Part shown: positions 1 through 44,608 of the stretch, one piece after another
Numbering within the stretch: position 1 is the first letter of the stretch
Layout of the letters: each line of letters opens with the position of its first letter
Assembly (NCBI RefSeq): GCF_057098645.1
Contig: NZ_CM169472.1
Length of the DNA: 64,000 bases
Direction: 5' to 3' (one strand)
Notes under the pieces: model-generated
Databases searched by the model: none
The model's input: only the letters and a program-made list of their open reading frames with translations
Told to the model about the DNA's origin: nothing
Made by a program: the position numbers and the translations under genes

Positions 1-780
1 GTAAAAGCCTCTTTTGCATTACAGGGCGCACACCTTCTCTCGTGGAAACCTGCGGGTGAAGAAGAAGTTCTGTGGTTGAGCAACAACACACCGTTCAAAA
101 ATGGCATCGCTATTCGCGGTGGCGTACCGGTTTGCTGGCCGTGGTTTGGTCCGGCGGCACAACAAGGCCTGCCTGCGCACGGTTTTGCCCGCAACCTGCC
201 GTGGACGCTGAAATCACATCGTGAAGATGCTGATGGCGTAGCGCTGACTTTTGAATTGACACAAAGCGAAGAGACGAAAAAATTCTGGCCGCACGACTTT
301 ACGCTGTTAGCGCATTTCCGCGTGGGTAAAACCTGTGAAATCGATCTTGAAGCACACGGCGAATTTGAAACCACCTCTGCCCTGCATACCTACTTTAACG
401 TGGGTGATATCGCTAAGGTAAGCGTCAGTGGGCTGGGCGATCGCTTCATTGATAAAGTAAATGACGCGAAAGAAGATGTACTGACCGACGGTATTCAGAC
501 CTTCCCTGACCGTACCGATCGCGTGTATCTGAATCCGCAAGATTGCAGCGTGATTAATGATGAAGCGCTGAATCGTATTATCGCCGTAGGCCACCAGCAT
601 CATCTGAACGTTGTAGGCTGGAACCCGGGACCGGCGCTTTCAGTTAGCATGGGCGATATGCCGGATGATGGCTACAAAACATTTGTTTGTGTAGAAACGG
701 CTTACGCTTCAGAAACGCAAAAAGTGACCAAAGAGAAACCTGCACATCTGGCGCAATCCATTCGCGTTGCGAAACGTTAA
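1..780 (+). CDS. yeaD: Glucose-6-phosphate 1-epimerase-like protein YeaD, 5' end outside window
   Basis: Frame is open from base 1 with no stop; ORF track 76..780 is the internal Met; product recognised as YeaD. Confidence 0.85.
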   Translation, partial: VKASFALQGAHLLSWKPAGEEEVLWLSNNTPFKNGIAIRGGVPVCWPWFGPAAQQGLPAHGFARNLPWTLKSHREDADGVALTFELTQSEETKKFWPHDFTLLAHFRVGKTCEIDLEAHGEFETTSALHTYFNVGDIAKVSVSGLGDRFIDKVNDAKEDVLTDGIQTFPDRTDRVYLNPQDCSVINDEALNRIIAVGHQHHLNVVGWNPGPALSVSMGDMPDDGYKTFVCVETAYASETQKVTKEKPAHLAQSIRVAKR

Positions 781-789
781 TTTGCGTTA

Positions 790-826
790 ATGTTGTGTGC
801 CGGGTGCGATGCATCCGGCACGTATC
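790..826. terminator. Palindromic stem-loop between convergent yeaD and yeaE, likely bidirectional terminator or REP-like element
   Basis: GTGCCGG...CCGGCAC inverted repeat directly after the yeaD stop; no strong T-run. Confidence 0.35.
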
Positions 827-830
827 AACA

Positions 831-1144
831 TCACACCATATCCAGCGCAGTTTTTCCTTTTGGTGCCGGATACGCTTTGTCCAGCATGGCTAATTCCGCT
901 GACGAAAGTTCGACCTCAAGCACAGCCGCATTCTGTTGGACATGGGCAATCGTGGCCGCTTTTGGAATCGCCATCACACCCTGATGGCTGATTACCCACG
1001 CCAACAATACTTGTGCCGCGCTGATATTGTGAGCATGTGCAATTTCGTTGACTACCGCGTTTTTTAACAGTCCATTGCGCAACCGCCCGGCCTGGGCTAA
1101 CGGACTGTAAGCCATCACCGGCATCTGCTGTTGCTGGCACCAGG
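831..1144 (-). pseudogene. yeaE: yeaE 3' fragment (aldo-keto reductase), separated from its 5' part by the IS insertion
   Basis: ORF 831..1217 matches the YeaE C-terminus from WCQQQQMPVMAYS onward; the upstream part of that ORF reads into IS sequence. Confidence 0.85.
1138..1144. repeat. Target-site duplication CACCAGG, left copy
   Basis: The same 7-mer flanks both IS ends (1138..1144 and 3785..3791); the reconstructed yeaE reading frame needs only one copy. Confidence 0.75.
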
Positions 1145-1346
1145 TGCAAAATGGCATCTGAATCGATCGCAGTTTGGCATTCGAATCGATCATGATTTGG
1201 CATCCATCTCCGATCACAGTTTGGCATCACAATCGATCACGATTTGGCATGCTTCCGATCATTGATTGGCATCCTGCCAGTCACTCCGGGAATTAACTCT
1301 TTTCACCACAGTCTCCATTGCCGTGTTTAAACCAGTGGAGACGTCA

Positions 1347-2912
1347 ATGTCCAGAAAGAGAAAATCCAGGAGCACTATGGAAACCTGTTTTAAGATCCTT
1401 CAGCTCAAGTTCGACAAGAAGCTGACTAACCGTTGTATCGGACTGACGTTACACATCAGCGCCTCAACCGTTTTTGAGGTTCTTGCCCGCTTCAAAGCCT
1501 CTTCTCTGTCATGGCCATTACCTGCTGATATATCCCATGACACGCTGGAGAAACTCATTTTTCCGCCCAAAGACACCTTTGCATCAGAGCTTGTAATGCC
1601 TGACATGTTGTACTTCGATACGGAAATGAGAAAACCAGGTGTGACGCGGCAACTGTTGTGGATGGAATACAAGGCACAGGCGGGTAACAAAGCGATGGGA
1701 TACTCGCACTTCTGCCGTTGCTACCGGGAGTGGAAAAAAACGCGACGTCTCTCCATGCGCCAGGAGCATCGTGCCGGCGAAAAGCTTTTTATCGACTTCT
1801 GTGGTCCTACGGTTCCTGTTATTAATCCGGACACCGGTGAGATACGCCGCGTGGCAATCTTCGTGGCCGTAATGGGGGCGTCCAACTATACCTACGTTGA
1901 AGCGTGCGAAGGTCAGGACATGATGTCATGGTTAAATGCCCACAGCCGTTGCCTGACCTTCCTGGGCGGCGTACCGAAGCTGCTCATCCCCGATAACCTC
2001 AGAAGCGCAGTGAAAAAGGCCGATCGATATGAGCCTGTCATCAACGACAGTTATCAGGCACTGGCTGAGCACTATGGCACGGTTATCATCCCGGCCCGAC
2101 CACGCAAACCTAAAGATAAACCAAAAGCAGAAAACGGCGTCCTCATCGTTGAACGATGGCTTCTTGCCCGCATCCGTAATGAAACCTTCCACACGCTCAG
2201 GGCGCTGAATGCGCGCCTTAGGGAGTTACTGACAGACATGAATAACCGGCCAATGAAGGGGTACGGCAATCAAACCCGTGCAGAACGCTTCCGCATACTG
2301 GATGCGCCAGCACTCTCTCCGCTGCCTCTGGCACCTTATGAATACACGGAATACAAAGCTGTGAAGGTTGGCCCTGACTACCACGTTGAATATGCCCGTC
2401 ACTGGTACTCCGTTCCACACGAACTGGTCGGTCAGCGTCTGTCACTGAAGGCGGGGCAGTCGGTGGTACAGCTCTGGCACAAGGGGCAGTGTGTGGCGCA
2501 ACATCCGCGCAGCACACATGAATATAAACACACAACCAATCCGCTTCACATGCCAGAGCGCCACCGGCAGCACGGGACATGGACACCGGAACGCCTGATC
2601 GAGCAGGGAAAACGTACGGGCCCGTCCACAGGCCGGGTGGTTGAATCCATGCTGAAGGCAAAACCCCATCCGGAACTGGCTTATCGTGCAGTTCTGGGGC
2701 TGCTGGCACTTCAGAAAAAATACGGCCCGGAACGGCTGGAAAAGGCCTGTTACGTTGCCCTGCACTATAACGCCCCTGACAGACGCTTTATCGACAATCT
2801 GCTGCGTCACCATCGGGAGAACCTGGAGCTTCCATTATCCCGCCAGGGCGAACAACATCCGGCATATGCTTCAGAGCATGAAAACCTGCGTGGTCCGGGC
2901 TACTACCACTGA
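1347..2912 (+). CDS. istA: IS21-family transposase IstA (521 aa)
   Basis: ORF 1266..2912; preferred start ATG 1347 (MSRKRKS) preceded by GGAG; the longer ORF-track start lies inside the terminal repeats; family assignment rests on the two-gene layout and repeat architecture. Confidence 0.8.
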   Translation: MSRKRKSRSTMETCFKILQLKFDKKLTNRCIGLTLHISASTVFEVLARFKASSLSWPLPADISHDTLEKLIFPPKDTFASELVMPDMLYFDTEMRKPGVTRQLLWMEYKAQAGNKAMGYSHFCRCYREWKKTRRLSMRQEHRAGEKLFIDFCGPTVPVINPDTGEIRRVAIFVAVMGASNYTYVEACEGQDMMSWLNAHSRCLTFLGGVPKLLIPDNLRSAVKKADRYEPVINDSYQALAEHYGTVIIPARPRKPKDKPKAENGVLIVERWLLARIRNETFHTLRALNARLRELLTDMNNRPMKGYGNQTRAERFRILDAPALSPLPLAPYEYTEYKAVKVGPDYHVEYARHWYSVPHELVGQRLSLKAGQSVVQLWHKGQCVAQHPRSTHEYKHTTNPLHMPERHRQHGTWTPERLIEQGKRTGPSTGRVVESMLKAKPHPELAYRAVLGLLALQKKYGPERLEKACYVALHYNAPDRRFIDNLLRHHRENLELPLSRQGEQHPAYASEHENLRGPGYYH

Positions 2913-2928
2913 CAGAAGGAACAACAGT

Positions 2929-3684
2929 ATGAGTGATAACCTGTTAAACAAACTGACCCAACTGAAACTCCCGGCGATGGCCGGGAGCCTGATACGGCAG
3001 CGGGAAACGCCTCAGACCTACGACGAACTGTCGTTCGAGGAAAGGCTGACGCTGCTGGTTGATGACGAGCTTCTGAGCAGGGAAAACAGCCGTGTGGCAC
3101 GGTTGAGAAAAAATGCCGGCCTGAAATACCAGGCAACACCGGAAGGGCTGCGCTATCCGGCCTCAAGAGGTCTGCGGGCTGAACAGATGAGAGAACTGCT
3201 GAACGGCCACTACATAACCCACAGGAAAAACCTGCTGATAACCGGTCCGACAGGATGTGGCAAGAGCTGGATAGCCAATGCGCTGGGCGAACAGGCATGT
3301 CGACAGAAACACAGCGTCCGGTACTGTAGAACCGGGCGATTACTGGAACAACTGGCTCAGGGACGTGTTGATGGCAGCTGGCTGAAATATCTGAAACAGT
3401 TGCAAAAAATACAGGTTCTAATCCTGGACGATCTGGGGCTGGAACAGTTAAGTAACGCCCAGTGTAATGACCTTCTGGAGCTCATAGAGGATCGTTACGG
3501 ACAAAGCAGCACGATAGTGGTAAGCCAGTTCCCGGTAGATAAATGGCATGGTCTGATGGAGAACCCAACAACAGCAGATGCCATCCTGGACAGACTGGTA
3601 CATAACTCACACCGAGTGGTCCTTCAGGGAGAGTCACTGAGGAAAAATCCCCCGGTAGTGGAAAGCAGCGAAAAAACGCGTTAA
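2929..3684 (+). CDS. istB: IS21-family helper ATPase IstB (251 aa)
   Basis: Walker A GPTGCGKSW and DExx-like LILDDLG motifs; ATG 2929 preceded by AAGGA, 16 nt after the istA stop; ORF-track upstream extension overlaps istA and is not used. Confidence 0.85.
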   Translation: MSDNLLNKLTQLKLPAMAGSLIRQRETPQTYDELSFEERLTLLVDDELLSRENSRVARLRKNAGLKYQATPEGLRYPASRGLRAEQMRELLNGHYITHRKNLLITGPTGCGKSWIANALGEQACRQKHSVRYCRTGRLLEQLAQGRVDGSWLKYLKQLQKIQVLILDDLGLEQLSNAQCNDLLELIEDRYGQSSTIVVSQFPVDKWHGLMENPTTADAILDRLVHNSHRVVLQGESLRKNPPVVESSEKTR

Positions 3685-3784
3685 AAAGCGGTAGAAAAAG
3701 TTAAGTTCCCGGTTGATCGAATGGATGCGAATCGCTGATCGGACTTCGATGCCAATCCGTGATCGAATAGAGCGGAATACGCAC

Positions 3785-3791
3785 ACCAGGG
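3785..3791. repeat. Target-site duplication CACCAGG, right copy
   Basis: Identical to 1138..1144. Confidence 0.75.
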
Positions 3792-4331
3792 GAGTAGATC
3801 GTACTCAATCCCTCGTGAACCGAGATGGTAAAGCACCTGATTAGTGGCACACTGATTTCCCCCCGGCAGCTGCCAGAGTTCCTGCATATCAGCATAATCA
3901 AGGTTAGAAACGCCCCAGCGGCGGATTTTTCCCTGGGCGATCAATTTTTCCATCGCTGCGACAGTCTCTTCAAAAGCGAAACGGCCAGACCAGTGTAATA
4001 AGTAGAGATCGAGATAATCAGTATTGAGACGGCGTAAACTGGCTTCGCATGCATTTATCGCTTTTTGCCCGCCAGCATTCCACGGATAGACTTTAGAGAC
4101 GAGAAAGACGTTATCGCGCAGACCGGTTAATGCTTCCCCAACCACCTTTTCGGCACCGCCATCGGCATACATTTCGGCGGTATCAATGAGGGTTAAACCG
4201 AGCTCAATGCCCGCGCGTAGTGCAGCAACTTCTGTTTTGCGCTGACTGGCATCTTCGCCCATATACCATGTTCCCTGCCCTATGGCTGGCAGTGAGACAT
4301 CGCCACTAAATTGAATCATTTTTTGTTGCAT
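3785..4331 (-). pseudogene. yeaE: yeaE 5' fragment (aldo-keto reductase N-terminal about 182 codons)
   Basis: ORF 3681..4331 matches YeaE from MQQKMIQFSG to LLPWC, then continues into IS-derived sequence. Confidence 0.85.
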
Positions 4332-4364
4332 TGTTTCCTCCCAGGTATTGCACCACCGTAATGC

Positions 4365-4390
4365 AAAACAGGGCGTGACGCCCTGTTTTT
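4365..4390. terminator. Stem-loop with flanking A/T runs downstream of mipA
   Basis: AAAACAGGGCGTGACGCCCTGTTTTT. Confidence 0.55.
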
Positions 4391-4420
4391 ATGCACAAAA
4401 TGCCCTGGAAAGATGCATTA

Positions 4421-5167
4421 TCAGAATTTGTAGGTGATCCCGGTAGAAATCAGGCCAGTCCAGGATTTATCCACCATCGGGCTGTCAGTAACTTCATCAG
4501 ACAGACGGGTGTAGCGCGCGGTACCGTAAACACTCCAGTCGCCGAGGAAGTTGTAGCTGGCGCTCAGCTCCAGGTAAGGGCTCCAGCTGTCGTTCGGGTT
4601 ATAGCCACGCAGACCGCTGCGAGCGGACTCTTTGCGCGATACGCCATAATAGTATTCGTTCTGGTTTTCGCTGTTCCACTGCACACCAATACCCGGAGTC
4701 ACGGTCAGGCCACCGTTGGTGTAACGATACAACCAGGCCATATCCCAGACGATGCCGTTGCTGTTATCCAGGGTATCGCCAGCCAGGGTGGTACGCAGGT
4801 AACCGTACTGGGTAAAGTGAGCATAAGACAGACCAGCCATCATGGTGCTCTTACGGTCATCCAGGTGACGCATTTGGTGATCGCCACTGTCTTTAGCTTT
4901 GAAGTAAAGCGGCGACCAGTAAGCGGTAATTGAAAGTTTATCCGTTGCGTCATTCCACAGGTAGTAACCACCACCTAAGCCACGGAACCAGAAGTTATCG
5001 CCTTCATAGTTGATTACCGGTACTGGGTAAACATCGGTATCGTAATCTTTATATGGGTGTTCAACGACACCTACGCCTGCGCCCAGGGAAAATTTACCTT
5101 CAGCGTGCGCTACGCCTGCAGACGTTGCGATAAGCACTCCAAGTGCCAGAAGTTTGAGTTTGGTCAC
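4421..5167 (-). CDS. mipA: MltA-interacting outer-membrane protein MipA
   Basis: 248-aa ORF with signal peptide and beta-barrel-like sequence; recognised as MipA. Confidence 0.9.
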   Translation of the reverse strand: MTKLKLLALGVLIATSAGVAHAEGKFSLGAGVGVVEHPYKDYDTDVYPVPVINYEGDNFWFRGLGGGYYLWNDATDKLSITAYWSPLYFKAKDSGDHQMRHLDDRKSTMMAGLSYAHFTQYGYLRTTLAGDTLDNSNGIVWDMAWLYRYTNGGLTVTPGIGVQWNSENQNEYYYGVSRKESARSGLRGYNPNDSWSPYLELSASYNFLGDWSVYGTARYTRLSDEVTDSPMVDKSWTGLISTGITYKF

Positions 5168-5483
5168 AATTAATCATTCCTTAAACAAATGTTTAGCGGG
5201 CGACAAAGTTTACCCGTCAATACATCGAAACCCAACCTTTTTACGTTTTCATTTTTTAAAGTAACTGTTTAATTTTCCTGACGCGGATGACACCGCGCTT
5301 ACAGCCAAATGAATTTAGCGTTACTGGCGAGCCTGGTCTTTACATTAATTATGCAAAATTTATGGATGAGTTGTTGATATGCCATTGAAATTAAGAAAGC
5401 CGTGTAGGCAAGTTTTCCATTTGCCATCTACGCTTAATTTTGAAGGTGTATCACCGGGCACGTTGTTCTCATCGTCGATAAAA

Positions 5484-5499
5484 TGGCATGAGAGTTGCT
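5484..5499 (+). promoter_or_regulatory. Candidate sigma-54 promoter (-24 TGGCAT / -12 TTGCT) upstream of yeaG
   Basis: TGGCATgagagTTGCT about 105 nt upstream of the yeaG ATG; matches the GG-N10-GC spacing. Confidence 0.4.
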
Positions 5500-5602
5500 G
5501 TGTTTTAGCAAGAGACGTCGTTCAGTTTACCTCTTCCGGGAGCCTCTACTATTCATATGAACGGCTCTTAACCTGTGCTAAAAAACGAAAGGACGGCATA
5601 CC

Positions 5603-7537
5603 ATGAATATATTCGATCACTATCGCCAGCGATATGAAGCTGCCAAGGACGAAGAGTTCACACTGCAGGAGTTTCTTACCACTTGTCGGCAAGATCGCAG
5701 TGCTTATGCCAACGCGGCTGAGCGGCTATTGATGGCTATCGGTGAGCCTGTCATGGTCGATACAGCCCAGGAACCCAGACTTTCTCGACTCTTTTCTAAC
5801 CGGGTCATTGCACGTTATCCGGCGTTTGAAGAGTTTTACGGCATGGAAGACGCGATTGAACAGATTGTCTCTTATCTGAAACACGCGGCTCAGGGGCTGG
5901 AAGAGAAGAAACAAATCCTGTATCTGCTGGGGCCTGTGGGTGGGGGTAAATCATCGCTTGCTGAGCGACTGAAATCATTAATGCAGCTCGTACCGATTTA
6001 TGTATTGAGCGCCAACGGTGAGCGTAGCCCGGTCAACGATCATCCGTTCTGTCTTTTCAATCCGCAGGAAGATGCGCAGATTCTGGAAAAAGAGTATGGC
6101 ATTCCTCGCCGTTATCTCGGCACCATCATGTCGCCGTGGGCGGCAAAACGTCTGCATGAATTTGGTGGCGATATTACTAAGTTCCGGGTAGTGAAGGTCT
6201 GGCCGTCCATTCTGCAACAAATTGCTATCGCCAAAACAGAGCCCGGTGATGAGAACAACCAGGACATCTCCGCGCTGGTAGGGAAAGTCGATATTCGTAA
6301 ACTCGAACACTACGCGCAGAATGACCCAGACGCCTATGGCTATTCCGGCGCACTGTGCCGCGCCAACCAGGGGATCATGGAATTCGTTGAGATGTTTAAA
6401 GCACCGATTAAAGTGCTGCATCCCTTGTTAACCGCCACTCAGGAAGGTAACTACAACGGGACGGAAGGTATCTCCGCCCTGCCGTTCAACGGGATTATTC
6501 TTGCCCACTCGAACGAGTCCGAATGGGTCACTTTCCGTAATAACAAAAACAACGAAGCCTTCCTCGATCGTGTTTACATCGTGAAGGTGCCGTATTGCTT
6601 GCGCATTTCCGAAGAGATCAAAATCTACGAGAAATTGCTTAATCACAGTGAATTGACTCACGCCCCATGCGCCCCTGGCACGCTCGAAACACTGTCACGT
6701 TTTTCCATTCTTTCGCGCCTGAAAGAGCCAGAAAACTCCAGCATTTATTCAAAGATGCGGGTTTATGATGGCGAAAGTCTGAAAGACACCGATCCCAAAG
6801 CCAAGTCGTATCAGGAATATCGTGACTACGCCGGTGTCGATGAAGGGATGAACGGTCTGTCGACGCGTTTTGCGTTTAAGATCCTCTCCCGCGTGTTCAA
6901 CTTCGATCATGTAGAAGTGGCGGCAAACCCGGTCCATCTGTTCTACGTCCTGGAACAGCAGATCGAGCGCGAGCAGTTCCCACAAGAGCAGGCAGAACGC
7001 TATCTGGAGTTCCTGAAAGGTTATCTGATCCCGAAATATGCCGAGTTTATTGGCAAAGAGATCCAGACGGCCTACCTTGAATCCTATTCCGAATATGGGC
7101 AAAACATTTTCGACCGTTATGTTACCTACGCGGATTTCTGGATTCAGGATCAGGAGTATCGCGATCCGGATACCGGGCAGCTGTTTGACCGCGAGTCTCT
7201 TAACGCCGAGCTGGAGAAAATCGAGAAACCGGCGGGGATCAGTAATCCAAAAGATTTCCGCAACGAGATTGTTAACTTCGTACTGCGCGCCAGAGCCAAT
7301 AACAGCGGACGCAATCCGAACTGGACCAGCTATGAAAAACTGCGCACGGTTATCGAGAAGAAAATGTTCTCCAATACCGAGGAGCTGTTGCCGGTTATCT
7401 CGTTTAACGCCAAAACGTCAACCGACGAGCAGAAGAAACACGACGACTTTGTCGACCGTATGATGGAAAAAGGCTACACCCGTAAACAGGTGCGTTTACT
7501 GTGCGAATGGTATTTGCGTGTACGTAAATCGTCTTAA
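5603..7537 (+). CDS. yeaG: PrkA-type serine protein kinase YeaG
   Basis: 644-aa ORF with P-loop GPVGGGKSS; recognised as YeaG. Confidence 0.9.
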   Translation: MNIFDHYRQRYEAAKDEEFTLQEFLTTCRQDRSAYANAAERLLMAIGEPVMVDTAQEPRLSRLFSNRVIARYPAFEEFYGMEDAIEQIVSYLKHAAQGLEEKKQILYLLGPVGGGKSSLAERLKSLMQLVPIYVLSANGERSPVNDHPFCLFNPQEDAQILEKEYGIPRRYLGTIMSPWAAKRLHEFGGDITKFRVVKVWPSILQQIAIAKTEPGDENNQDISALVGKVDIRKLEHYAQNDPDAYGYSGALCRANQGIMEFVEMFKAPIKVLHPLLTATQEGNYNGTEGISALPFNGIILAHSNESEWVTFRNNKNNEAFLDRVYIVKVPYCLRISEEIKIYEKLLNHSELTHAPCAPGTLETLSRFSILSRLKEPENSSIYSKMRVYDGESLKDTDPKAKSYQEYRDYAGVDEGMNGLSTRFAFKILSRVFNFDHVEVAANPVHLFYVLEQQIEREQFPQEQAERYLEFLKGYLIPKYAEFIGKEIQTAYLESYSEYGQNIFDRYVTYADFWIQDQEYRDPDTGQLFDRESLNAELEKIEKPAGISNPKDFRNEIVNFVLRARANNSGRNPNWTSYEKLRTVIEKKMFSNTEELLPVISFNAKTSTDEQKKHDDFVDRMMEKGYTRKQVRLLCEWYLRVRKSS

Positions 7538-7637
7538 CAACCCTGGCCCGGTACACATGCTACCGGGCCTACAACGACAGCGAACCGTGGGCCAGAGAAA
7601 TGGCAACACAGGCGTAGCATACAGTTGGCAAATGTAG

Positions 7638-8933
<1,296 letters not shown>

Positions 8934-8937
8934 AACT

Positions 8938-8970
8938 ATCAGCCGGGTCATTATCGCCTGGCTGATTTTT
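8938..8970 (+). terminator. Rho-independent terminator after yeaH
   Basis: ATCAGCCGGG...CCTGGCTGAT hairpin followed by TTTTT. Confidence 0.6.
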
Positions 8971-9079
8971 AGCTTACTGTAAATTATCTCATTTATTACA
9001 TACATTAGCTTACAATCGCTTTAAATATGACAGCATAACCTTTACATAATTTAGTTCCAGAAAACAATCATTCGGAAAA

Positions 9080-10555
9080 ATGATTCAGTCAACACGTATT
9101 TCCATGGGGTTATTCTTTAAATATTTTTTATCGTTAACGAAAATTGATCTTGGTCAAAACTATATATCTCTGCCATCAATAAAATCCAGCACTCACATTG
9201 TTCTCCTTTTTATGGTTTCTATGGGTACACAAAAATTAAAAGCTCAAAGCTTTTTTATTTTCAGTTTATTGCTGACGTTAATTTTATTTTGCATTACTAC
9301 CTTATATAACGAAAACACAAATGTAAAACTCATCCCACAGATGAATTACCTGATGGTTGTTGTGGCTTTGTTTTTCCTTAACGCCGTCATTTTTCTTTTC
9401 ATGTTAATGAAATATTTCACTAACAAACAAATTTTACCAACACTCATTTTAAGCCTTGCATTTTTAAGTGGCCTTATCTATTTAGTTGAAACCATTGTAA
9501 TTATCCATAAACCAATTAACGGCAGTACACTGATCCAGACAAAGTCGAATGATGTTTCTATTTTCTATATTTTCCGCCAACTCAGTTTTATTTGTTTAAC
9601 CTCGCTGGCGCTCTTTTGTTATGGCAAAGACAACATCCTGAACAATAATAAGAAAAAAACGGCAATCCTGTTGCTGGCGCTGATCCCTTTTTTATTTTTT
9701 CCCGTTCTGGCACACAATCTGAGCAGTTATAACGCTGACTATTCTTTGTATGTCGTCGATTACTGTCCTGACAACCATACTGCGACCTGGGGAATCAACT
9801 ATACAAAAATATTGGTTTGTCTGTGGGCATTTTTACTGTTCTTTATTATCATGCGTACACGATTAGCCAGCGAACTATGGCCATTAATAGCATTATTATG
9901 TCTGGCATCGCTATGCTGCAACTTACTTCTACTGACTCTGGATGAGTATAATTACACCATCTGGTACATCAGTCGCGGGATTGAAGTCTCCAGTAAACTG
10001 TTTGTTGTGTCTTTTCTGATTTATAACATTTTTCAGGAGCTGCAACTCTCCAGCAAACTGGCAGTTCATGATGTGCTGACCAATATTTATAATCGGCGCT
10101 ACTTTTTCAACAGCGTAGAGTCATTATTGTCGCGACCTGTTGTTAAGGACTTTTGTGTCATGTTGGTTGATATTAATCAGTTCAAACGCATCAATGCCCA
10201 ATGGGGACATCGTGTGGGTGATAAAGTGCTGGTATCAATTGTCGATATTATCCAGCAAAGCATCCGCCCCGATGATATTTTAGCGCGACTGGAGGGTGAG
10301 GTGTTTGGCTTGCTATTTACCGAACTCAATAGTGCCCAGGCAAAAATCATTGCGGAACGTATGCGTAAAAATGTCGAACTCCTGACCGGCTTTAGTAACA
10401 GATATGATGTTCCTGAACAAATGACCATCAGTATTGGCACTGTTTTTTCAACGGGTGACACGCGTAATATCTCGCTTGTCATGACGGAAGCAGATAAAGC
10501 CTTACGCGAAGCGAAAAGCGAGGGGGGCAACAAAGTGATTATTCATCATATTTAA
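9080..10555 (+). CDS. yeaI: Membrane GGDEF-domain protein with degenerate active-site motif (EGEVF)
   Basis: 491-aa ORF; AT-rich multi-TM N-terminus; RLEGEVFGLLF where GGDEF is expected. Confidence 0.85.
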   Translation: MIQSTRISMGLFFKYFLSLTKIDLGQNYISLPSIKSSTHIVLLFMVSMGTQKLKAQSFFIFSLLLTLILFCITTLYNENTNVKLIPQMNYLMVVVALFFLNAVIFLFMLMKYFTNKQILPTLILSLAFLSGLIYLVETIVIIHKPINGSTLIQTKSNDVSIFYIFRQLSFICLTSLALFCYGKDNILNNNKKKTAILLLALIPFLFFPVLAHNLSSYNADYSLYVVDYCPDNHTATWGINYTKILVCLWAFLLFFIIMRTRLASELWPLIALLCLASLCCNLLLLTLDEYNYTIWYISRGIEVSSKLFVVSFLIYNIFQELQLSSKLAVHDVLTNIYNRRYFFNSVESLLSRPVVKDFCVMLVDINQFKRINAQWGHRVGDKVLVSIVDIIQQSIRPDDILARLEGEVFGLLFTELNSAQAKIIAERMRKNVELLTGFSNRYDVPEQMTISIGTVFSTGDTRNISLVMTEADKALREAKSEGGNKVIIHHI

Positions 10556-10735
10556 GTGCAAAAATATTCAGAGCCATGCTTTTTGCGTGGCTTTTGCATA
10601 CAATTTATTACTATTACCCCTAAATTTCCCCTCCCCAGCGGCGCAGAGATGAGTATAATTAGCGCCCCTGTGCCAGGCCGCAATCGAACTTTATCTGGTT
10701 TTCTCGTTTCACTAACCGAAGGAGTGCCATTTATC

Positions 10736-12226
10736 ATGAAATTGCACCATAGAATGCTCCGGCATTTTATCGCCGCAAGTGTCATTGTGCTGACATCTTC
10801 CTTCCTTATTTTTGAACTTGTCGCCAGCGACAGAGCAATGAGTGCCTATCTGCGCTATATCGTGCAGAAAGCAGACTCCTCCTTTCTTTATGATAAGTAT
10901 CAGAATCAGAGTATTGCCGCGCATGTGATGCGCGCTCTCGCTGCTGAGCAGTCGGAAGTGTCGCCAGAACAGCGGCGCGCCATCTGCGAGGCTTTTGAGT
11001 CTGCCAATAATACCCATGGCTTAAACCTGACTGCCCATAAATACCCGGGCTTACGCGGCACACTACAAACCGCATCCACTGACTGCGACACAATTGTGGA
11101 AGCTGCAGCACTATTACCCGCTTTTGATCAGGCAGTGGAAGGCAACCGCCACCAGGATGATTACGGTTCAGGTCTTGGGATGGCCGAAGAGAAATTTCAC
11201 TATTATCTCGATCTCAATGACCGCTATGTCTATTTTTATGAGCCGGTTAATGTTGAATACTTTGCGATGAATAACTGGTCCTTCCTGCAGTCAGGAAGTA
11301 TTGGCATCGATCGCAAAGATATTGAAAAGGTATTTACCGGGCGTACCGTATTGTCGAGCATTTACCAGGATCAGCGTACTAAACAGAACGTGATGAGTTT
11401 GCTGACGCCGGTGTATGTTGCAGGGCAGCTAAAAGGGATTGTGCTGCTGGATATTAACAAAAACAATCTGCGGAATATCTTTTACACTCATGACCGCCCT
11501 CTCCTCTGGCGTTTTCTCAATGTCACGCTAACCGATACAGATTCGGGGCGCGACATTATCATCAACCAGAGCGAAGATAATCTGTTCCAGTATGTCAGTT
11601 ACGTCCATGACTTACCGGGCGGCATTCGTGTCTCGTTATCCATTGATATTCTTTACTTTATCACGTCTTCGTGGAAAAGCGTTCTGTTCTGGATTTTGAC
11701 GGCGTTAATTTTGCTGAATATGGTGCGGATGCACTTCCGCTTATACCAAAATGTGTCGCGAGAAAATATTAGTGATGCGATGACTGGACTGTATAATCGC
11801 AAAATTTTAACCCCTGAACTGGAGCAGCGGTTGCAGAAACTGGTGCAATCCGGTTCTTCGGTGATGTTTATTGCAATTGACATGGACAAGTTAAAGCTAA
11901 TAAATGACACCCTCGGTCATCAGGAAGGGGATTTAGCGATTACGTTGTTAGCTCAGGCGATTAAACAGTCGATTCGTAAAAGTGATTATGCCATCCGACT
12001 CGGTGGCGATGAATTCTGCATCATTCTTGTCGATTCGACGCCGCAAATTGCATCACAACTGCCTGAACGTATCGAAAAACGTCTGCAACATATCGCGCCG
12101 CAGAAAGAGATCGGCTTCTCTTCCGGTATTTACGCGATGAAAGAAAACGATACGTTACATGATGCGTATAAAGCTTCCGATGAGCGTTTATATGTCAATA
12201 AGCAGAACAAAAACAGCCGTTCATGA
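10736..12226 (+). CDS. yeaJ: Diguanylate cyclase YeaJ (intact GGDEF)
   Basis: Start ATG 10736 (MKLHHRML) after AAGGAG gives 496 aa; RLGGDEF present; ORF-track start 10556 is an upstream extension. Confidence 0.85.
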   Translation: MKLHHRMLRHFIAASVIVLTSSFLIFELVASDRAMSAYLRYIVQKADSSFLYDKYQNQSIAAHVMRALAAEQSEVSPEQRRAICEAFESANNTHGLNLTAHKYPGLRGTLQTASTDCDTIVEAAALLPAFDQAVEGNRHQDDYGSGLGMAEEKFHYYLDLNDRYVYFYEPVNVEYFAMNNWSFLQSGSIGIDRKDIEKVFTGRTVLSSIYQDQRTKQNVMSLLTPVYVAGQLKGIVLLDINKNNLRNIFYTHDRPLLWRFLNVTLTDTDSGRDIIINQSEDNLFQYVSYVHDLPGGIRVSLSIDILYFITSSWKSVLFWILTALILLNMVRMHFRLYQNVSRENISDAMTGLYNRKILTPELEQRLQKLVQSGSSVMFIAIDMDKLKLINDTLGHQEGDLAITLLAQAIKQSIRKSDYAIRLGGDEFCIILVDSTPQIASQLPERIEKRLQHIAPQKEIGFSSGIYAMKENDTLHDAYKASDERLYVNKQNKNSRS

Positions 12227-12268
12227 TAACCTTCTGTGGTTGTTTGCTTGTAATCTCAGGAGCATGAA

Positions 12269-12772
12269 ATGACTGAAATGGCTAAAGGAAGCGTGACGCA
12301 TCAGCGGTTAATCGCTTTATTATCACAAGAAGGTGCAGACTTCCGCGTCGTTACCCATGAAGCGGTAGGTAAATGTGAAGCGGTGTCAGAAATTCGTGGC
12401 ACCGCTTTAGGCCAGGGGGCTAAGGCACTGGTATGTAAAGTCAAAGGCAATGGCGTAAATCAACATGTTCTGGCGATCCTCGCTGCGGATCAACAGGCCG
12501 ATCTGAGCCAACTCGCCAGCCATATAGGCGGATTACGCGCTTCGTTGGCCAGCCCGGCGGAAGTCGATGAACTCACAGGCTGTGTCTTCGGCGCGATCCC
12601 CCCTTTCAGCTTCCATCCAAAACTCAAACTGGTTGCCGACCCCCTACTCTTCGAACGATTTGATGAAATCGCCTTCAATGCAGGCATGCTGGATAAATCC
12701 GTTATTTTGAAAACCGCGGATTATTTGCGCATTGCGCAACCAGAACTGATCAATTTCCGCCGCACTGCGTAA
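12269..12772 (+). CDS. yeaK: YbaK/ProX-family aminoacyl-tRNA deacylase YeaK
   Basis: 167-aa ORF recognised as YeaK. Confidence 0.85.
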   Translation: MTEMAKGSVTHQRLIALLSQEGADFRVVTHEAVGKCEAVSEIRGTALGQGAKALVCKVKGNGVNQHVLAILAADQQADLSQLASHIGGLRASLASPAEVDELTGCVFGAIPPFSFHPKLKLVADPLLFERFDEIAFNAGMLDKSVILKTADYLRIAQPELINFRRTA

Positions 12773-12877
12773 CTAGCCTGTCCGTTCAATAAGCAGAACG
12801 GACAAAACCAGCACAACAGCAATGGCAAAAAACGATGACGTGATAATCAGTGTCTCGACGAACATTTGATCGTTCAT
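12773..12877 (-). CDS. yoaI: Small membrane protein YoaI (34 aa)
   Basis: Hand translation of the minus strand gives [34 protein letters not shown]; below the ORF-track length cut-off. Confidence 0.75.
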
Positions 12878-13046
12878 AGCATGCCCCCGGGAGATAGCTG
12901 TTTTCACGTTATTGTTAGCGTGCACAAATGGCAGTTTGATGACAGTTCGCCTGATTTTTTATGCAAAAAACGTAAAGATTTTCTACTTCCTTCCTGCAGC
13001 AAGCGTAAAGTAAGCAGGCTTATTATTTTTTGGCAAGGAAACCACG

Positions 13047-13493
13047 ATGTTTGATGTCACTTTGCTGATCCTGCTCGGGTTAGCTGCGCTGGGCTTTATC
13101 AGTCATAACACCACTGTCGCCGTTTCAATTCTGGTGTTGATCATTGTCCGCGTCACACCGTTAAGCACCTTTTTCCCGTGGATTGAAAAACAGGGGCTAA
13201 GTATCGGGATAATCATTCTGACGATTGGCGTTATGGCCCCCATCGCCAGCGGGACGCTACCGCCCTCAACCTTGATTCACTCGTTTCTGAACTGGAAATC
13301 GCTGGTGGCAATTGCAGTAGGCGTTATTGTCTCCTGGCTGGGTGGGCGCGGCGTGACGTTAATGGGCAGCCAGCCGCAACTGGTTGCTGGGCTGCTGGTG
13401 GGCACTGTTTTAGGCGTAGCGCTGTTTCGCGGCGTACCGGTTGGCCCGCTTATTGCCGCGGGTCTGGTTTCGCTGATTGTGGGGAAACAGTAG
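13047..13493 (+). CDS. yeaL: UPF0756 inner-membrane protein YeaL
   Basis: 148-aa hydrophobic ORF recognised as YeaL. Confidence 0.85.
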
Positions 13494-14271
13494 TTAATCC
13501 CGCAATATATCGGCCTGGCGTTTGCCCCAGGCCTTTCTTAAACATAGTAATAAAGGCCGTTGTTGAATCATACCCCAGCGTATGAGCAACTTTCTGTACA
13601 GTATCGCCTTTCACTAATCCCTGAAGCGCCATAATCAGCTGTAACTGCTGACGCCACTGGCGAAAACTCAACCCCGTCTCTTTTACTATCAGTCGGGCAA
13701 GATTGCGTTCACTCATCGCAAAAAAGCCAGCCCATTGCCCCAATGACCCCCACTCGACGGGCTCTTTCGCCATCATCTCCACCATCGTGCGGATTTTAGG
13801 ATGAGAAGAAACGGGCAAGTGCAGCTGTTGTTGTGGCTGCTGAGGGAGTTCATCAAACAGGACCTGAATTAATCTGCGGGTCATCGGCTCAGCACGCTGA
13901 GTCGTAGTCCTGTTTGCCAGGGTTAAAATCAATTCCCGGCATAAGGGCGATATTTTCAATGTGCAACATGTTGTCGGCATTGTCACTGCGCTGGGTTCGA
14001 TAAACAGAAAACAGAGTTCAGCGTTAGCTGTCACTTGATTGCTATGCTTCACCCCGCCCGGTATCCAAACCGCATATTGTGGCGGCACCATCCACAAAGC
14101 ATTTTCCACCGTACAGGTAATTGCACCATGTAATGCCAGTATCAGCTGTCCTTTGCGGTGCTGATGTACAGGACTGGTTAACTCATCCGTTCCGGCGTGA
14201 ATACAAAATGCGACCGCGGCTTCATGGTGTCGGTCGGGTTCATAGCCATTGAGATTCAACCTGTGCATCAT
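13450..14271 (-). CDS. yeaM: AraC-family transcriptional regulator YeaM (NimR)
   Basis: 273-aa ORF with C-terminal AraC HTH; divergent from yeaN; 3' end overlaps yeaL. Confidence 0.85.
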
Positions 14272-14367
14272 TTTGTCCGAATATAGCGATAATTTGTCAT
14301 TTTAGCTTGATTCAACATAACAATAAAAACGGTAAGGTACAGCCTCGTTTGTAACAATGAGAAGCAT

Positions 14368-15549
14368 ATGACCTGTTCAACTTCATTAAGCGGCAAAAAC
14401 AGGATTGTCCTTATCGCTGGCATTCTGATGATTGCCACTACATTACGCGTCACCTTCACCGGCGCTGCACCGTTACTCGATACGATTCGTTCCGCTTACT
14501 CGCTGACGACTGCGCAAATCGGCTTATTGACCACCCTGCCATTATTGGCCTTTGCGCTAATCTCACCTTTGGCCGCCCCGGTGGCGCGACGTTTTGGTAT
14601 GGAACGTAGCCTGTTTGCCGCGTTACTTTTGATCTGTGCTGGTATCGCAATTCGCTCTCTCCCTTCGCCTTACTTATTATTTGGCGGTACAGCGGTCATT
14701 GGCGGTGGGATTGCATTAGGCAATGTCTTACTGCCAGGATTAATTAAACGCGATTTCCCTCATTCCGTCGCCAGACTTACCGGCGCATATTCCCTGACAA
14801 TGGGAGCTGCGGCGGCACTGGGATCGGCTATGGTAGTGCCGCTGGCTTTGAACGGTTTTGGCTGGCAAGGCGCGTTGCTCATGCTGATGTGTTTTCCTCT
14901 GCTGGCTCTTTTTTTATGGCTGCCACAGTGGCGAAGCCAACAACATGCAAATTTGAGTACTTCACGCGCCTTACATACTCGGGGTATCTGGCGTTCGCCG
15001 CTTGCCTGGCAGGTAACATTGTTTCTTGGGATCAACTCACTGGTCTATTACGTGATTATTGGCTGGCTTCCGGCGATCCTCATCAGTCACGGCTATAGCG
15101 AAGCACAGGCGGGTTCACTGCATGGTTTGCTGCAACTAGCCACAGCAGCTCCCGGTTTGCTGATCCCGCTTTTCTTACATCATGTGAAAGATCAGCGTGG
15201 TATTGCAGCGTTCGTTGCCTTGATGTGCGCAGTGGGCGCGGTTGGGCTCTGCTTTATGCCAGCGCACGCGATCACCTGGACTCTGCTTTTCGGTTTTGGT
15301 TCCGGCGCAACAATGATACTGGGGTTGACGTTCATTGGTCTTCGGGCAAGTTCTGCGCATCAGGCGGCGGCACTCTCGGGGATGGCACAATCCGTCGGGT
15401 ATTTGCTGGCAGCCTGTGGGCCGCCGCTGATGGGTAAAATACACGATGCTAACGGTAACTGGTCTGTACCACTGATGGGTGTTGCCATGCTTTCACTACT
15501 GATGGCGATTTTCGGACTTTGCGCCGGAAGAGACAAAGAAATTCGCTAA
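14368..15549 (+). CDS. yeaN: MFS transporter YeaN (NimT)
   Basis: 393-aa 12-TM ORF recognised as YeaN. Confidence 0.85.
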   Translation: MTCSTSLSGKNRIVLIAGILMIATTLRVTFTGAAPLLDTIRSAYSLTTAQIGLLTTLPLLAFALISPLAAPVARRFGMERSLFAALLLICAGIAIRSLPSPYLLFGGTAVIGGGIALGNVLLPGLIKRDFPHSVARLTGAYSLTMGAAAALGSAMVVPLALNGFGWQGALLMLMCFPLLALFLWLPQWRSQQHANLSTSRALHTRGIWRSPLAWQVTLFLGINSLVYYVIIGWLPAILISHGYSEAQAGSLHGLLQLATAAPGLLIPLFLHHVKDQRGIAAFVALMCAVGAVGLCFMPAHAITWTLLFGFGSGATMILGLTFIGLRASSAHQAAALSGMAQSVGYLLAACGPPLMGKIHDANGNWSVPLMGVAMLSLLMAIFGLCAGRDKEIR

Positions 15550-15603
15550 TATCCGGTGCTATAGTGACGTGACAAATCATGCGTGAAAGGGAGAACAAAC
15601 ACG

Positions 15604-15951
15604 ATGAATATTCAGTGCAAACGCGTTTATGATCCGGCAGAACAGAGCGATGGTTATCGCATACTGGTCGACCGCCTCTGGCCGCGCGGTATCAAAAAAA
15701 CCGATTTAGCCCTTGATGAGTGGGATAAAGAAATCACGCCGTCAACGGAACTGCGCAAAGCCTTTCACGGCGAAGTCGTCGATTTTGCAACCTTTCGCGA
15801 GCAATATCTTGCAGAACTGGCGCAACACGAGCAAGAAGGAAAGCGGCTGGCGGACATCGCCAAAAAACAGCCGCTGACCCTGCTCTACTCAGCAAAAAAC
15901 ACCACGCAGAACCATGCGCTGGTGCTGGCCGACTGGCTACGTAGCTTGTGA
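15604..15951 (+). CDS. yeaO: DUF488 protein YeaO
   Basis: ATG 15604 (MNIQCKRVYD) after GGGAGA gives 115 aa; ORF-track start 15583 is a GTG extension. Confidence 0.85.
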   Translation: MNIQCKRVYDPAEQSDGYRILVDRLWPRGIKKTDLALDEWDKEITPSTELRKAFHGEVVDFATFREQYLAELAQHEQEGKRLADIAKKQPLTLLYSAKNTTQNHALVLADWLRSL

Positions 15952-15972
15952 TTTTAGTACAGCATCCGGCGG

Positions 15973-16227
15973 TTATTTTTCACCAGCCGGATGGTCCCGT
16001 CGCCACAATGCCCATTCATCAATCGTTTCACCGCCCGGTAATTTGCAATTGTTGCTGACCCCTTGCGCTGTCTGCACTGGAATGAGCGTCCCGCCCTTCT
16101 GCTGGCAATAGACCGACGCCGGATTTGCCATACCAATCTGCGGCGGTTTAGGTGCATCTGGCTGAGAAGGGGTTGAACAACCAGCCAGGACCAGCAAGCA
16201 AGGCAGAACAAAACTGATAATTTTCAT
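15973..16227 (-). CDS. yoaF: Lipoprotein YoaF (DUF333)
   Basis: 84-aa ORF with lipobox LAGC. Confidence 0.85.
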   Translation of the reverse strand: MKIISFVLPCLLVLAGCSTPSQPDAPKPPQIGMANPASVYCQQKGGTLIPVQTAQGVSNNCKLPGGETIDEWALWRRDHPAGEK

Positions 16228-16409
16228 TTATTGATCTCACATATTTATCCAAGCTTAGAGTATCGCGGTATCGTTTTGTTTTGCAGCACTATTTTTATTA
16301 CATTCACTCAAAACATATTACGTCTTGTTTCATCTTTGTTGATGATGTTTTATCATGCCTGCAAAGATTAAATAATCAGCACTTACCCGCCGTATCCTGG
16401 AGTTGTTCC

Positions 16410-17435
16410 GTGTCAGATCAGATTATCGCCCGCGTCTCGCAATCCCTTGCCAAAGAACAGTCACTGGAAAGTCTGGTCCGACAGCTTCTGGAGATGCTGG
16501 AAATGGTCACTGATATGGAATCAACCTACCTGACCAAAGTGGATGTCGAAGCGCGCCTGCAGCATATTATGTTTGCCCGTAACAGCCAGAAAATGCACAT
16601 CCCGGAGAATTTTACCGTCTCGTGGGATTACTCGTTATGCAAACGCGCCATTGATGAAAACTGCTTTTTCAGCGATGAAGTCCCTGACCGTTGGGGCGAC
16701 TGTATTGCGGCACGCAATCTTGGCATCACCACATTTCTGAGCACGCCAATTCACTTACCGGATGGATCATTCTATGGCACGCTTTGCGCCGCCAGCAGTG
16801 AGAAGCGCCAGTGGAGTGAACGCGCGGAACAGGTTTTACAGTTATTCGCCGGACTGATTGCACAATATATTCAAAAAGAGGCACTGGTTGAACAGCTGCG
16901 CGAAGCCAATGCTGCGCTGATTGCGCAATCGTATACCGACTCGTTAACCGGGCTACCGAATCGGCGGGCGATTTTTGAAAATCTGACGACGCTGTTTTCC
17001 CTCGCCCGGCATCTTAACCATAAGATAATGATCGCGTTTATCGATCTGGATAACTTCAAATTAATCAATGATCGTTTTGGTCATAATAGTGGCGATCTGT
17101 TTCTCATTCAGGTTGGCGAGCGCCTTAATACGCTCCAGCAAAATGGCGAAGTTATTGGTCGTCTCGGTGGTGATGAGTTTTTGGTTGTTTCACTAAACAA
17201 CGAGAATGCGGATATTTCGTCGCTGCGAGAACGTATTCAACAGCAAATACGTGGAGAATATCACTTAGGTGATGTTGATTTGTATTATCCCGGTGCCAGT
17301 CTTGGCATAGTAGAAGTCGATCCTGAAACGACCGATGCAGACAGTGCCCTGCATGCTGCCGATATCGCGATGTATCAGGAGAAAAAACACAAACAGAAAA
17401 CACCTTTTGTCGCGCATCCAGCGCTACATTCCTGA
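16410..17435 (+). CDS. yeaP: GAF-GGDEF diguanylate cyclase YeaP
   Basis: GTG start 16410 after GGAG gives 341 aa; RLGGDEF present; ORF-track start 16281 is an upstream extension. Confidence 0.85.
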   Translation: MSDQIIARVSQSLAKEQSLESLVRQLLEMLEMVTDMESTYLTKVDVEARLQHIMFARNSQKMHIPENFTVSWDYSLCKRAIDENCFFSDEVPDRWGDCIAARNLGITTFLSTPIHLPDGSFYGTLCAASSEKRQWSERAEQVLQLFAGLIAQYIQKEALVEQLREANAALIAQSYTDSLTGLPNRRAIFENLTTLFSLARHLNHKIMIAFIDLDNFKLINDRFGHNSGDLFLIQVGERLNTLQQNGEVIGRLGGDEFLVVSLNNENADISSLRERIQQQIRGEYHLGDVDLYYPGASLGIVEVDPETTDADSALHAADIAMYQEKKHKQKTPFVAHPALHS

Positions 17436-17467
17436 GGCGTATTCACATCCTTTTGATTGGTGATAAC

Positions 17468-17566
17468 ATGCGAATCGGTATTATTTTTCCGGTTGTAATC
17501 TTCATTACAGCGGTCGTATTTTTAGCATGGTTTTTTATTGGCGGCTATGCTGCCCCGGGAGCATAA
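17468..17566 (+). CDS. yoaK: Small membrane protein YoaK (32 aa)
   Basis: Hand translation gives MRIGIIFPVVIFITAVVFLAWFFIGGYAAPGA; absent from ORF track. Confidence 0.7.
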   Translation: MRIGIIFPVVIFITAVVFLAWFFIGGYAAPGA

Positions 17567-17568
17567 AG

Positions 17569-17643
17569 ATGAAAAAAACAACGATTATTATGATGGGTGT
17601 GGCGATTATTGTCGTACTCGGCACTGAGCTGGGATGGTGGTAA
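17569..17643 (+). CDS. yoaJ: Small membrane protein YoaJ (24 aa)
   Basis: Hand translation gives MKKTTIIMMGVAIIVVLGTELGWW; starts 2 nt after the yoaK stop. Confidence 0.7.
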   Translation: MKKTTIIMMGVAIIVVLGTELGWW

Positions 17644-17664
17644 CGTCACCTCTAAAAAATAGCA

Positions 17665-17688
17665 AAGGCTGCCTGTGTGCAGCCTTTG
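17665..17688. terminator. Bidirectional stem-loop between yoaJ (+) and yeaQ (-)
   Basis: AAAGGCTGC-ctgtgt-GCAGCCTTT. Confidence 0.55.
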
Positions 17689-17701
17689 TGCAATTTAAGC
17701 G

Positions 17702-17950
17702 TTAACTTTTAATCTTCCTGTAGATAAATAGCACGACAATCGCACCAATAACGGCAACCACGAAGCTGCCAAAATTGAAGCCATCAACTTTACCAAAGCC
17801 AAACAGCGTGCTGATCCATCCGCCGACTACGGCACCGACTATCCCCAGCAGGATAGTCATAAAGAATCCACCACCATCTTTACCTGGCATGATCCACTTC
17901 GCCAGAATACCGGCAATAAGCCCAAAAATAATCCATGACAGAATGCCCAT
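17702..17950 (-). CDS. yeaQ: GlsB/YeaQ/YmgE-family small membrane protein YeaQ
   Basis: 82-aa Gly-rich two-TM ORF. Confidence 0.85.
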   Translation of the reverse strand: MGILSWIIFGLIAGILAKWIMPGKDGGGFFMTILLGIVGAVVGGWISTLFGFGKVDGFNFGSFVVAVIGAIVVLFIYRKIKS

Positions 17951-18097
17951 TGTTTCCTCACTTATCTGTTTTGCATTAGCGGGTTAGTCGCTGATAAAAA
18001 GCATAGCACAACATCGGGAGGGCAAGATTTGTGACGAGCATCACGGAGGATTTTTTTGCGATGGCGCAGAAATTGCGCCATCAACGATCAGTGATAA

Positions 18098-18280
18098 TTA
18101 CCAACCACAAACATCATGTTCGTTTTCCGTGTCATAAGAACGTACGGTATTCACCAGATCTTTTATCACTTCAGCCGCCTCTTCTGGCACCAGCAAAGTC
18201 ATCGGCGTCTCTGTTTCATAATCGACAGAAACGCCATTGCTGTTATTGGTGACGGTCACGGTATACGTTGCTTTGCTCAT
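18098..18280 (-). CDS. yoaG: DUF1869 protein YoaG
   Basis: 60-aa ORF, 3 nt downstream of yeaR on the same strand. Confidence 0.8.
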   Translation of the reverse strand: MSKATYTVTVTNNSNGVSVDYETETPMTLLVPEEAAEVIKDLVNTVRSYDTENEHDVCGW

Positions 18281-18283
18281 GAT

Positions 18284-18643
18284 TCATTTCCCGTTATGAA
18301 TGACTTTCCGTTGTTGCGCACCTTCCATCAGGACTTCAGGAGCCACGAAGAAGTCAATATTGAAATAAGTATCGTCAGTCATGGCTTCAATGTTGTGCCA
18401 CTTTTCTGGAGGGAACACCGCGAACTGCCCCGCTTCGATAAGGATCACCTGATCAGGCTCTGCACTGTGTTCATCAGCGTAGCCGAGATATTTGACCGCC
18501 CCATGCATAACGGAAAGGCGTGGGTAAACCCCCGGGCGCGTTCCTTTATCAAGATGACGTTCGAATATTCCGGCAGGCGCAGTTTGTTTATTCCAGAAAG
18601 GCGTTGAGCGCGTATGAATATAATTCTGTGGGATTTGCAGCAT
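18284..18643 (-). CDS. yeaR: DUF1971 protein YeaR
   Basis: 119-aa ORF recognised as YeaR. Confidence 0.85.
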   Translation of the reverse strand: MLQIPQNYIHTRSTPFWNKQTAPAGIFERHLDKGTRPGVYPRLSVMHGAVKYLGYADEHSAEPDQVILIEAGQFAVFPPEKWHNIEAMTDDTYFNIDFFVAPEVLMEGAQQRKVIHNGK

Positions 18644-44500: not shown

Positions 44501-44608
44501 TCGCTATGCCTGCATGAACGCGAAAACCCATCGCGGCTTGTTGTTCATGTATGCATGTTTGCTGGGGGCGATGATGTGTTTTATGGATATCCCGGTCAGG
44601 ACGTTGTC

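Follow-up and report, generated by a model that had tools for sequence, protein, structure and literature searches.

The locus lies in a window of 64,000 nucleotides (the whole stretch of DNA that was analysed, from contig NZ_CM169472.1) and comprises three genes on one strand with a fourth gene running towards them. The first, dgcP (previously yeaP; 16410..17435, + strand, with matching RefSeq coordinates), encodes a GAF-GGDEF diguanylate cyclase (Pfam GGDEF, 5.6e-41; GAF_2, 1.4e-10) and heads the dgcP-yoaK-yoaJ unit. It is followed by yoaK (17468..17566, + strand; RefSeq CDS WP_001219350.1), which encodes a single-pass small inner-membrane protein of 32 residues, and by yoaJ (17569..17643, + strand; RefSeq CDS WP_001386836.1), which encodes a single-pass (N-in, C-out) small inner-membrane protein of 24 residues. 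The convergent gene yeaQ (17702..17950, - strand) encodes a membrane protein of the GlsB/YeaQ/YmgE family (PF04226, 1.7e-16) and stands outside the operon, with which it shares a GC-rich hairpin terminator at 17662..17689.

Read directly from the sequence, the yoaK frame extends from the ATG at 17468 to the TAA at 17564..17566 (32 codons, product MRIGIIFPVVIFITAVVFLAWFFIGGYAAPGA) and the yoaJ frame from the ATG at 17569 to the TAA at 17641..17643 (24 codons, product MKKTTIIMMGVAIIVVLGTELGWW). Only the dinucleotide AG (17567..17568) separates the yoaK stop from the yoaJ start in this window, a gap of +2 nt, and the back-to-back layout with a 2-nt gap given in the first-pass annotation, which had been made from the letters alone, is therefore exact.

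Neither of these tiny genes is new: they are yoaK and yoaJ of E. coli, both long catalogued. Of 5426 complete E. coli genomes, 5418 gave a match in a megablast search with positions 17300..17800, and 5394 had at least 80% of the query; identity over the region was at least 95% in every one of the 5418. Among the matches listed, every full-length one carries RefSeq annotation for dgcP, yoaK, yoaJ and yeaQ. The best match, E. coli O145:H28 RM12761, is 100% identical, and its yoaK and yoaJ CDS map to 17468..17566 and 17569..17643; the window itself appears to derive from an O145:H28-like chromosome and not from K-12. Both peptides exceed the curated thresholds of their NCBIfam equivalog models and align with them from end to end: YoaK scores 69.1 bits with NF033821 (threshold 32, E 1.8e-19, all 32 residues and model positions), and YoaJ scores 60.4 bits with NF011343 (threshold 54, E 1.1e-16, all 24 residues and model positions). 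In RefSeq and in the 30 species loci described below, yoaK occupies the same position, between dgcP or yoaF on one side and yoaJ-yeaQ on the other. A Pfam search returned no meaningful family for either peptide and the PDB holds no chain that resembles them. The two peptides have no detectable similarity to each other, and the idea that they are paralogues was dropped on that ground.

The names, lengths and coordinates that had been proposed, as well as the neighbours yeaP (now dgcP) and yeaQ, are hence right by sequence, RefSeq and NCBIfam alike. To call the genes hidden was an overstatement: YoaK and YoaJ first entered the literature as small membrane proteins in 2008 (Hemm et al., Mol Microbiol 70:1487, a paper cited by both 10.1101/511675 and PMC4597795), and both are part of the standard RefSeq annotation. 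As to the further remark that neither gene is in the list of open reading frames, both frames do appear in the mechanical list, at a low length cut-off, as slightly longer ORFs: a 37-aa frame with a TTG start for yoaK (17453..17566) and a 38-aa frame with an ATG start for yoaJ (17527..17643), the latter overlapping yoaK out of frame. The annotated and conserved starts are those at 17468 and 17569, not the starts of these longer ORFs.

Open frames of this size are insignificant on their own, since 477 ORFs with an ATG start reach 24 aa or more in the six frames of the 64-kb window. The abundance of such short ORFs is what could favour reading yoaK and yoaJ as chance ORFs, or as annotation artefacts of an intergenic spacer, and the status of the two as genes derives instead from conservation, annotation and published experiments. 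Conservation was examined in 80 loci from different species, gathered by scanning genome contigs with the neighbour YeaQ as bait, so that the existence of the small ORFs was not presupposed. By tblastn, both peptides were found in 30 of the 80 yeaQ loci, a single one in none and neither in 50. The 30 pair-bearing loci belong to Escherichia, Citrobacter, Salmonella enterica arizonae, Enterobacter, Leclercia and two MAGs; the 50 in which tblastn did not find the pair include Klebsiella, Raoultella terrigena, Pluralibacter, Trabulsiella, Pantoea, Erwinia, Serratia and Yersinia, among others, and no hydrophobic ORF that converges on yeaQ turned up when these same 50 loci were scanned for one.

Across the 30 loci, yoaK has 32 codons, save for one 33-codon form whose TGA overlaps the next ATG, and yoaJ has 24 codons throughout, save for one frameshifted copy. 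The start codon is ATG for yoaK, and for yoaJ it is ATG in 22 loci, GTG in seven and disrupted in one. Substitution rates, computed by the Nei-Gojobori method on the unique sequences of these loci, are those of coding sequence in the annotated frames: dN is 0.074 and dS 1.50 for yoaK (dN/dS 0.05, against 2.6 and 5.1 in the shifted frames), and dN is 0.20 and dS 1.19 for yoaJ (dN/dS 0.17, against 1.2 and 2.0). Variable sites at codon positions 1, 2 and 3 number 13, 7 and 30 in yoaK and 15, 10 and 22 in yoaJ, which means that the third position varies in 30 of 32 and 22 of 24 codons respectively. Both frames are coding and under strong purifying selection. The comparison of the two frames in related genomes, which the first-pass annotation had named as one way to check, and possibly refute, its claim, does not refute it: both frames are kept, with dN/dS above 1 only when the frame is shifted. 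Against the frame-specific selection, the conserved starts, stops and Shine-Dalgarno sequences, the matches to curated family models and the published detection of the proteins, the chance-ORF reading has next to no probability left and is refuted by the cross-species frame conservation and the dN/dS values.

The 30 loci also show which yoaJ reading is conserved. In the Enterobacter clade, a yoaK stop closes the frame directly ahead of the yoaJ start, which excludes the 38-aa reading as a conserved product. Its ATG (17527..17529) sits within the yoaK Ala20-Trp21 codons (GCA TGG), and in close relatives a synonymous yoaK change to GCG TGG converts this ATG to GTG; given this change and the closed frame in Enterobacter, the start at 17527..17529 is not conserved.

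Two individual genomes depart from the general pattern. In C. sedlakii NBRC 105722 (locus L013:3380-3390, - strand), yoaJ has ATGAAAAAAC (A6) where the others have ATGAAAAAAAC (A7), and the loss of one A from the A7 run after the ATG puts 22 conserved residues out of the ATG frame. In this lineage, from which dgcP is missing too, the copy may be a pseudogene; the alternative is a sequencing error in the homopolymer. In E. coli strain 700481 (locus L082, 3168..3930), an IS1 element lies directly after dgcP, and yoaK, yoaJ, yeaQ, yoaG, yeaR and part of leuE are gone; the IS1-associated deletion means that the pair is dispensable in at least one natural isolate.

The junction between the two genes carries a second layer of conservation. 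Ahead of yoaK, a Shine-Dalgarno-like GGTGAT (17459..17464, + strand) ends 3 nt 5' of the ATG; the aGGTGAt sequence is retained in most of the 30 loci and replaced by the weaker GCAGATAA in some Citrobacter. The Shine-Dalgarno sequence of yoaJ, GGGAG (17557..17561, + strand), lies 7 nt before the yoaJ ATG and inside yoaK itself, within the Pro30-Gly31-Ala32 codons. Across the 30 loci, the only distances from stop to start are -1, 0 and +2 nt. The codon for Gly31 is GGA or GGG in 29 of the 30, whereas Gly25 and Gly26 use GGC or GGT in 58 of 60 cases; likewise, Ala32 is GCA in 28 of 30, compared with all four Ala codons at codon 29 where that residue is Ala. Such restricted codon use points to an RNA-level constraint on the last codons of yoaK, and this constraint is just the one that GGAG or GGGG, placed as a Shine-Dalgarno sequence 6-9 nt ahead of the yoaJ start, would impose.

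These features make it well supported, as far as sequence can speak to it, that translation of yoaJ is coupled to that of yoaK. The claim of a translationally coupled pair therefore stands on the junction of -1, 0 or +2 nt and on the Gly31-borne Shine-Dalgarno sequence, although it keeps the rank of a prediction. Most likely, the ribosomes that translate yoaJ would either come straight from the end of yoaK or bind at the Shine-Dalgarno sequence in its last three codons, and the two peptides would thus be made together. Folding of the junction RNA gave a mean probability of being unpaired of about 0.38 for the yoaJ Shine-Dalgarno sequence and about 0.36 for its AUG, which amounts to no more than a moderate and variable occlusion. 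The minimum free energy folds often pair UGGUUUUUU of yoaK with AAAAAAAC of yoaJ, and the TTT codon is used for Phe22 and Phe23 in 25 and 23 of the 30 loci, barely above the 13-21 of 30 at other Phe codons. Masking of the yoaJ start by this pairing is accordingly not claimed, as accessibility is only moderately reduced and the codon bias gives the pairing no clear backing.

Downstream of the pair, the terminator hairpin has stem arms at 17662/3..17672 and 17679..17688/9 and a loop of 6 nt, flanked by an A6 run (17654..17659) on one side and by TTTGTGCAATTT on the other. On either strand it folds with -18 to -19 kcal/mol and a z-score of about -3. The terminator scan reports the hairpin on the - strand, in the direction of yeaQ, with the tail CTATTTTTTA, the - strand U-tract reading CUAUUUUUU; on the + strand, the imperfect T tract TTTGTGCAATTT (UUUGUGCAAUUU) fails the same scan in this strain. 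A consensus drawn from 29 distinct sequences gives a hairpin of 11 pairs. In four of these pairs both partners have changed in a compensatory way, one example being the replacement of G-C by A-U in 11 sequences. The T-run on the + side is a clean TTTTTT in most other species. The terminator had been described as bidirectional. The conserved, stable hairpin and the - strand signal bear this out, while the weak + strand U-tract of this strain does not, so that the label is reasonable for the family and partly demonstrated for the strain at hand.

Co-transcription of the pair, which had also been suggested, is backed by a published RNA-seq operon call: OperomeDB (PMC4620388) gives yeaP-yoaK-yoaJ as an example of a newly called operon, and this published work establishes the operon membership of the pair. 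DgcP is under vegetative (RpoD) rather than RpoS control and is expressed in growing cells (PMC5635695). The pair forms the 3' end of a dgcP(yeaP)-yoaK-yoaJ transcription unit that is closed by the hairpin terminator held in common with yeaQ.

The linkage to dgcP is close without being absolute. The gene lies directly upstream of yoaK in 28 of the 30 loci; in S. enterica arizonae (L008) and C. sedlakii (L013) it has been deleted and the pair is kept beside yoaF, which implies that the pair has no strict need for dgcP or its transcript. In both species, similarity to dgcP-bearing relatives restarts at CTTTTGTC, about 60 nt 5' of yoaK (L008 ~3487..3560 and L013 ~3485..3560, both on the - strand; the equivalent in the window is 17408..17433). 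At that place, in the last codons of dgcP, the window has a candidate promoter-like motif (17408..17433, + strand; TTGTCG, 14 nt, CATTCC) that is weak in E. coli, and the alignment of the 30 loci has TTGTC(A/G), 15-16 nt and then TATTCT or TACACT in relatives. A conserved motif at the point where similarity restarts suggests a promoter inside the end of dgcP.

It is conceivable, if doubtful, that the pair is expressed mainly from such a promoter of its own and is an independent unit that merely sits behind dgcP. Its persistence where dgcP is deleted, and the -35/-10-like pair conserved where similarity restarts, would fit this arrangement. However, the E. coli motif is poor and was not reported by the consensus promoter scan, part of its conservation is accounted for by the coding sequence and stop codon of dgcP, and RNA-seq operon calling joins dgcP, yoaK and yoaJ. 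An internal promoter is moreover compatible with read-through from dgcP. Because the E. coli version is weak, it is graded here as a rival to, or a complement of, expression from the dgcP operon.

Both peptides have the character of membrane proteins. YoaK has a GRAVY of 1.88 and a best 15-aa window with a mean Kyte-Doolittle value of 3.10, and its sole charge is Arg2; YoaJ has a GRAVY of 1.22 and a mean of 2.52, with its only positive charges, Lys2-Lys3, at the N-terminal end and Glu20 at the C-terminal end. Each has one bilayer-long hydrophobic stretch with positive charge on its N-terminal side, the arrangement of a single-pass type II membrane protein, and the single-TM character read from the letters is borne out by the hydrophobicity of both.

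The published protein-level work agrees with this and establishes the membrane nature of the pair. YoaK has been seen by immunoblot of a chromosomal tag and is among the weaker expressed of the known small proteins (Weaver et al., 10.1101/511675). For YoaJ, a type II (N-in, C-out) topology was reported by Fontaine et al. 2011, as cited in PMC4597795, and an HA-MBP-YoaJ fusion showed integral membrane association and co-precipitated with RseP (Akiyama et al. 2015, PMC4597795), where YoaJ is called a small membrane protein without an assigned function. Purified RseP cut both YoaK and YoaJ in vitro in a 2023 mBio study (PMC10470546), in which the in-vivo results for the two disagree between constructs and are labelled 'class II'. 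In PMC4597795 and PMC10470546, YoaK and YoaJ count as small proteins that have been identified and are expressed, induction of YoaJ by diamide is attributed to Hemm 2010 in PMC12542507, and both proteins are still listed without an assigned function in PMC9769844. Each is a single-helix inner-membrane micro-protein with a cytoplasmic N terminus, and the RseP intramembrane protease may trim the levels of both.

Short, very hydrophobic, single-TM peptides recall type I toxins of the Hok, Ibs or Ldr kind, which are restrained by an antisense RNA, and RseP also cut Hok toxins in the screen that included YoaK and YoaJ (PMC10470546). Neither strand of 16200..18300 gave an Rfam match at E up to 1, so that the antisense or overlapping regulatory RNA of a type I toxin-antitoxin system was not found there, and neither a repeat nor an antisense promoter signal was found beyond chance. 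Tagged and fusion forms have been expressed in reports that make no mention of toxicity (PMC10470546, 10.1101/511675, PMC4597795), and the stable vertical synteny with dgcP and yeaQ differs from a patchy, mobile distribution. A toxin-like role is on this evidence extremely improbable.

In another account, the act of translation matters and the peptides are irrelevant, with ribosomes, for instance, protecting the 3' end of the dgcP mRNA or modulating termination or the convergent transcription of yeaQ. The position of the ORFs between a gene and a shared terminator, and the weak expression of YoaK among known small proteins, lend this account some appeal. It is very improbable nonetheless, given that selection acts on the amino acids (dN/dS of 0.05 and 0.17), with 18 of 32 YoaK residues and nine of 24 YoaJ residues invariant over 30 species while synonymous change is saturated (dS 1.2 to 1.5), and given that the lengths are fixed and stable membrane-inserted products have been reported.

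A functional peptide pair remains the preferred reading. It is almost certain that yoaK and yoaJ are genuine, catalogued genes for membrane micro-proteins that form the tail of the dgcP operon and end at a shared terminator, with YoaJ most likely made together with YoaK. To judge from small membrane proteins of other kinds in bacteria, the most likely role would be to sit in the membrane as partners of some larger protein or as its modulators. A more specific proposal is that YoaK and YoaJ form a two-helix membrane module tied to DgcP, with all three genes working as one unit; the two peptides might, for example, bring the soluble GAF-GGDEF protein to the inner membrane, or regulate it there, and so serve local signalling by c-di-GMP. 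The proposal draws on the strict co-occurrence of the two peptides (both in 30 loci, one alone in none, neither in 50) and on the presence of dgcP upstream in 28 of 30, and is weakened by the persistence of the pair in two dgcP-less lineages; we regard it as unlikely. Joint action of YoaK and YoaJ, and any link to DgcP, are thus put forward as conjecture. Were the proposal true, the locus would be one functional unit and not an enzyme gene with two passengers.

The pair is no isolated curiosity, as the window is rich in small proteins. Other annotated small-protein genes, all on the - strand, are yoaI (12773..12877), yoaL (40493..40651, overlapping the yoaE start), yobF (46369..46512) and mgrB (47543..47686). 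The leader of mntP (44381..44612) has a Mn2+ (yybP-ykoY) riboswitch that scores 42 bits against an Rfam gathering score of 45 and is for that reason missed by a default Rfam scan; directly after the riboswitch comes a 40-aa 'hypothetical protein' ORF (44490..44612), with a 4-nt overlap between its stop and the start of mntP. Rfam matches at gathering level lie at 62020..62164, 26937..27022 and 46072..46532, and comprise an overlapping antisense sRNA pair, SraC/RyeA (+ strand) and SdsR/RyeB (- strand), sroD, and a cspA-type thermoregulator model that spans a csp gene and yobF. RefSeq labels this csp gene cspE; its position is presumably that of cspC in K-12.

The discovery value of the present analysis is slight, as the pair is already in RefSeq, in NCBIfam and in the small-protein literature. 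It has a value for calibration, since a reading of raw sequence made without tools found two real genes of 24 and 32 codons with their starts correct. What is added is modest and consists of the fixed lengths, the Shine-Dalgarno sequence embedded in Pro-Gly-Ala codons, the strict co-occurrence, the linkage to dgcP and the retention of the pair in lineages that lost dgcP, together with a possible promoter inside the end of that gene.

Compared with YoaK and YoaJ of E. coli K-12, the genes described here are the same, with identical lengths, neighbours and NCBIfam equivalog matches and no difference. Among characterised small membrane proteins, the closest likeness is to MgrB, AcrZ, CydX and MgtR/MgtS, which also have fewer than 50 aa and one TM helix, are encoded in or beside operons of larger proteins and, in several cases, have likewise been tested as RseP substrates. 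Unlike these, YoaK and YoaJ have no known partner protein or phenotype, and they share no sequence similarity with them. With respect to gene arrangement, the pair resembles translationally coupled genes that act by termination-reinitiation (Huber et al. 2019, Nat Commun 10:4006, as cited in PMC11188072), in that the two genes lie on the same strand at -1 to +2 nt with the Shine-Dalgarno sequence of the second inside the upstream ORF; it differs from the usual coupled pairs in that both members are micro-proteins, which is unusual yet not unprecedented.
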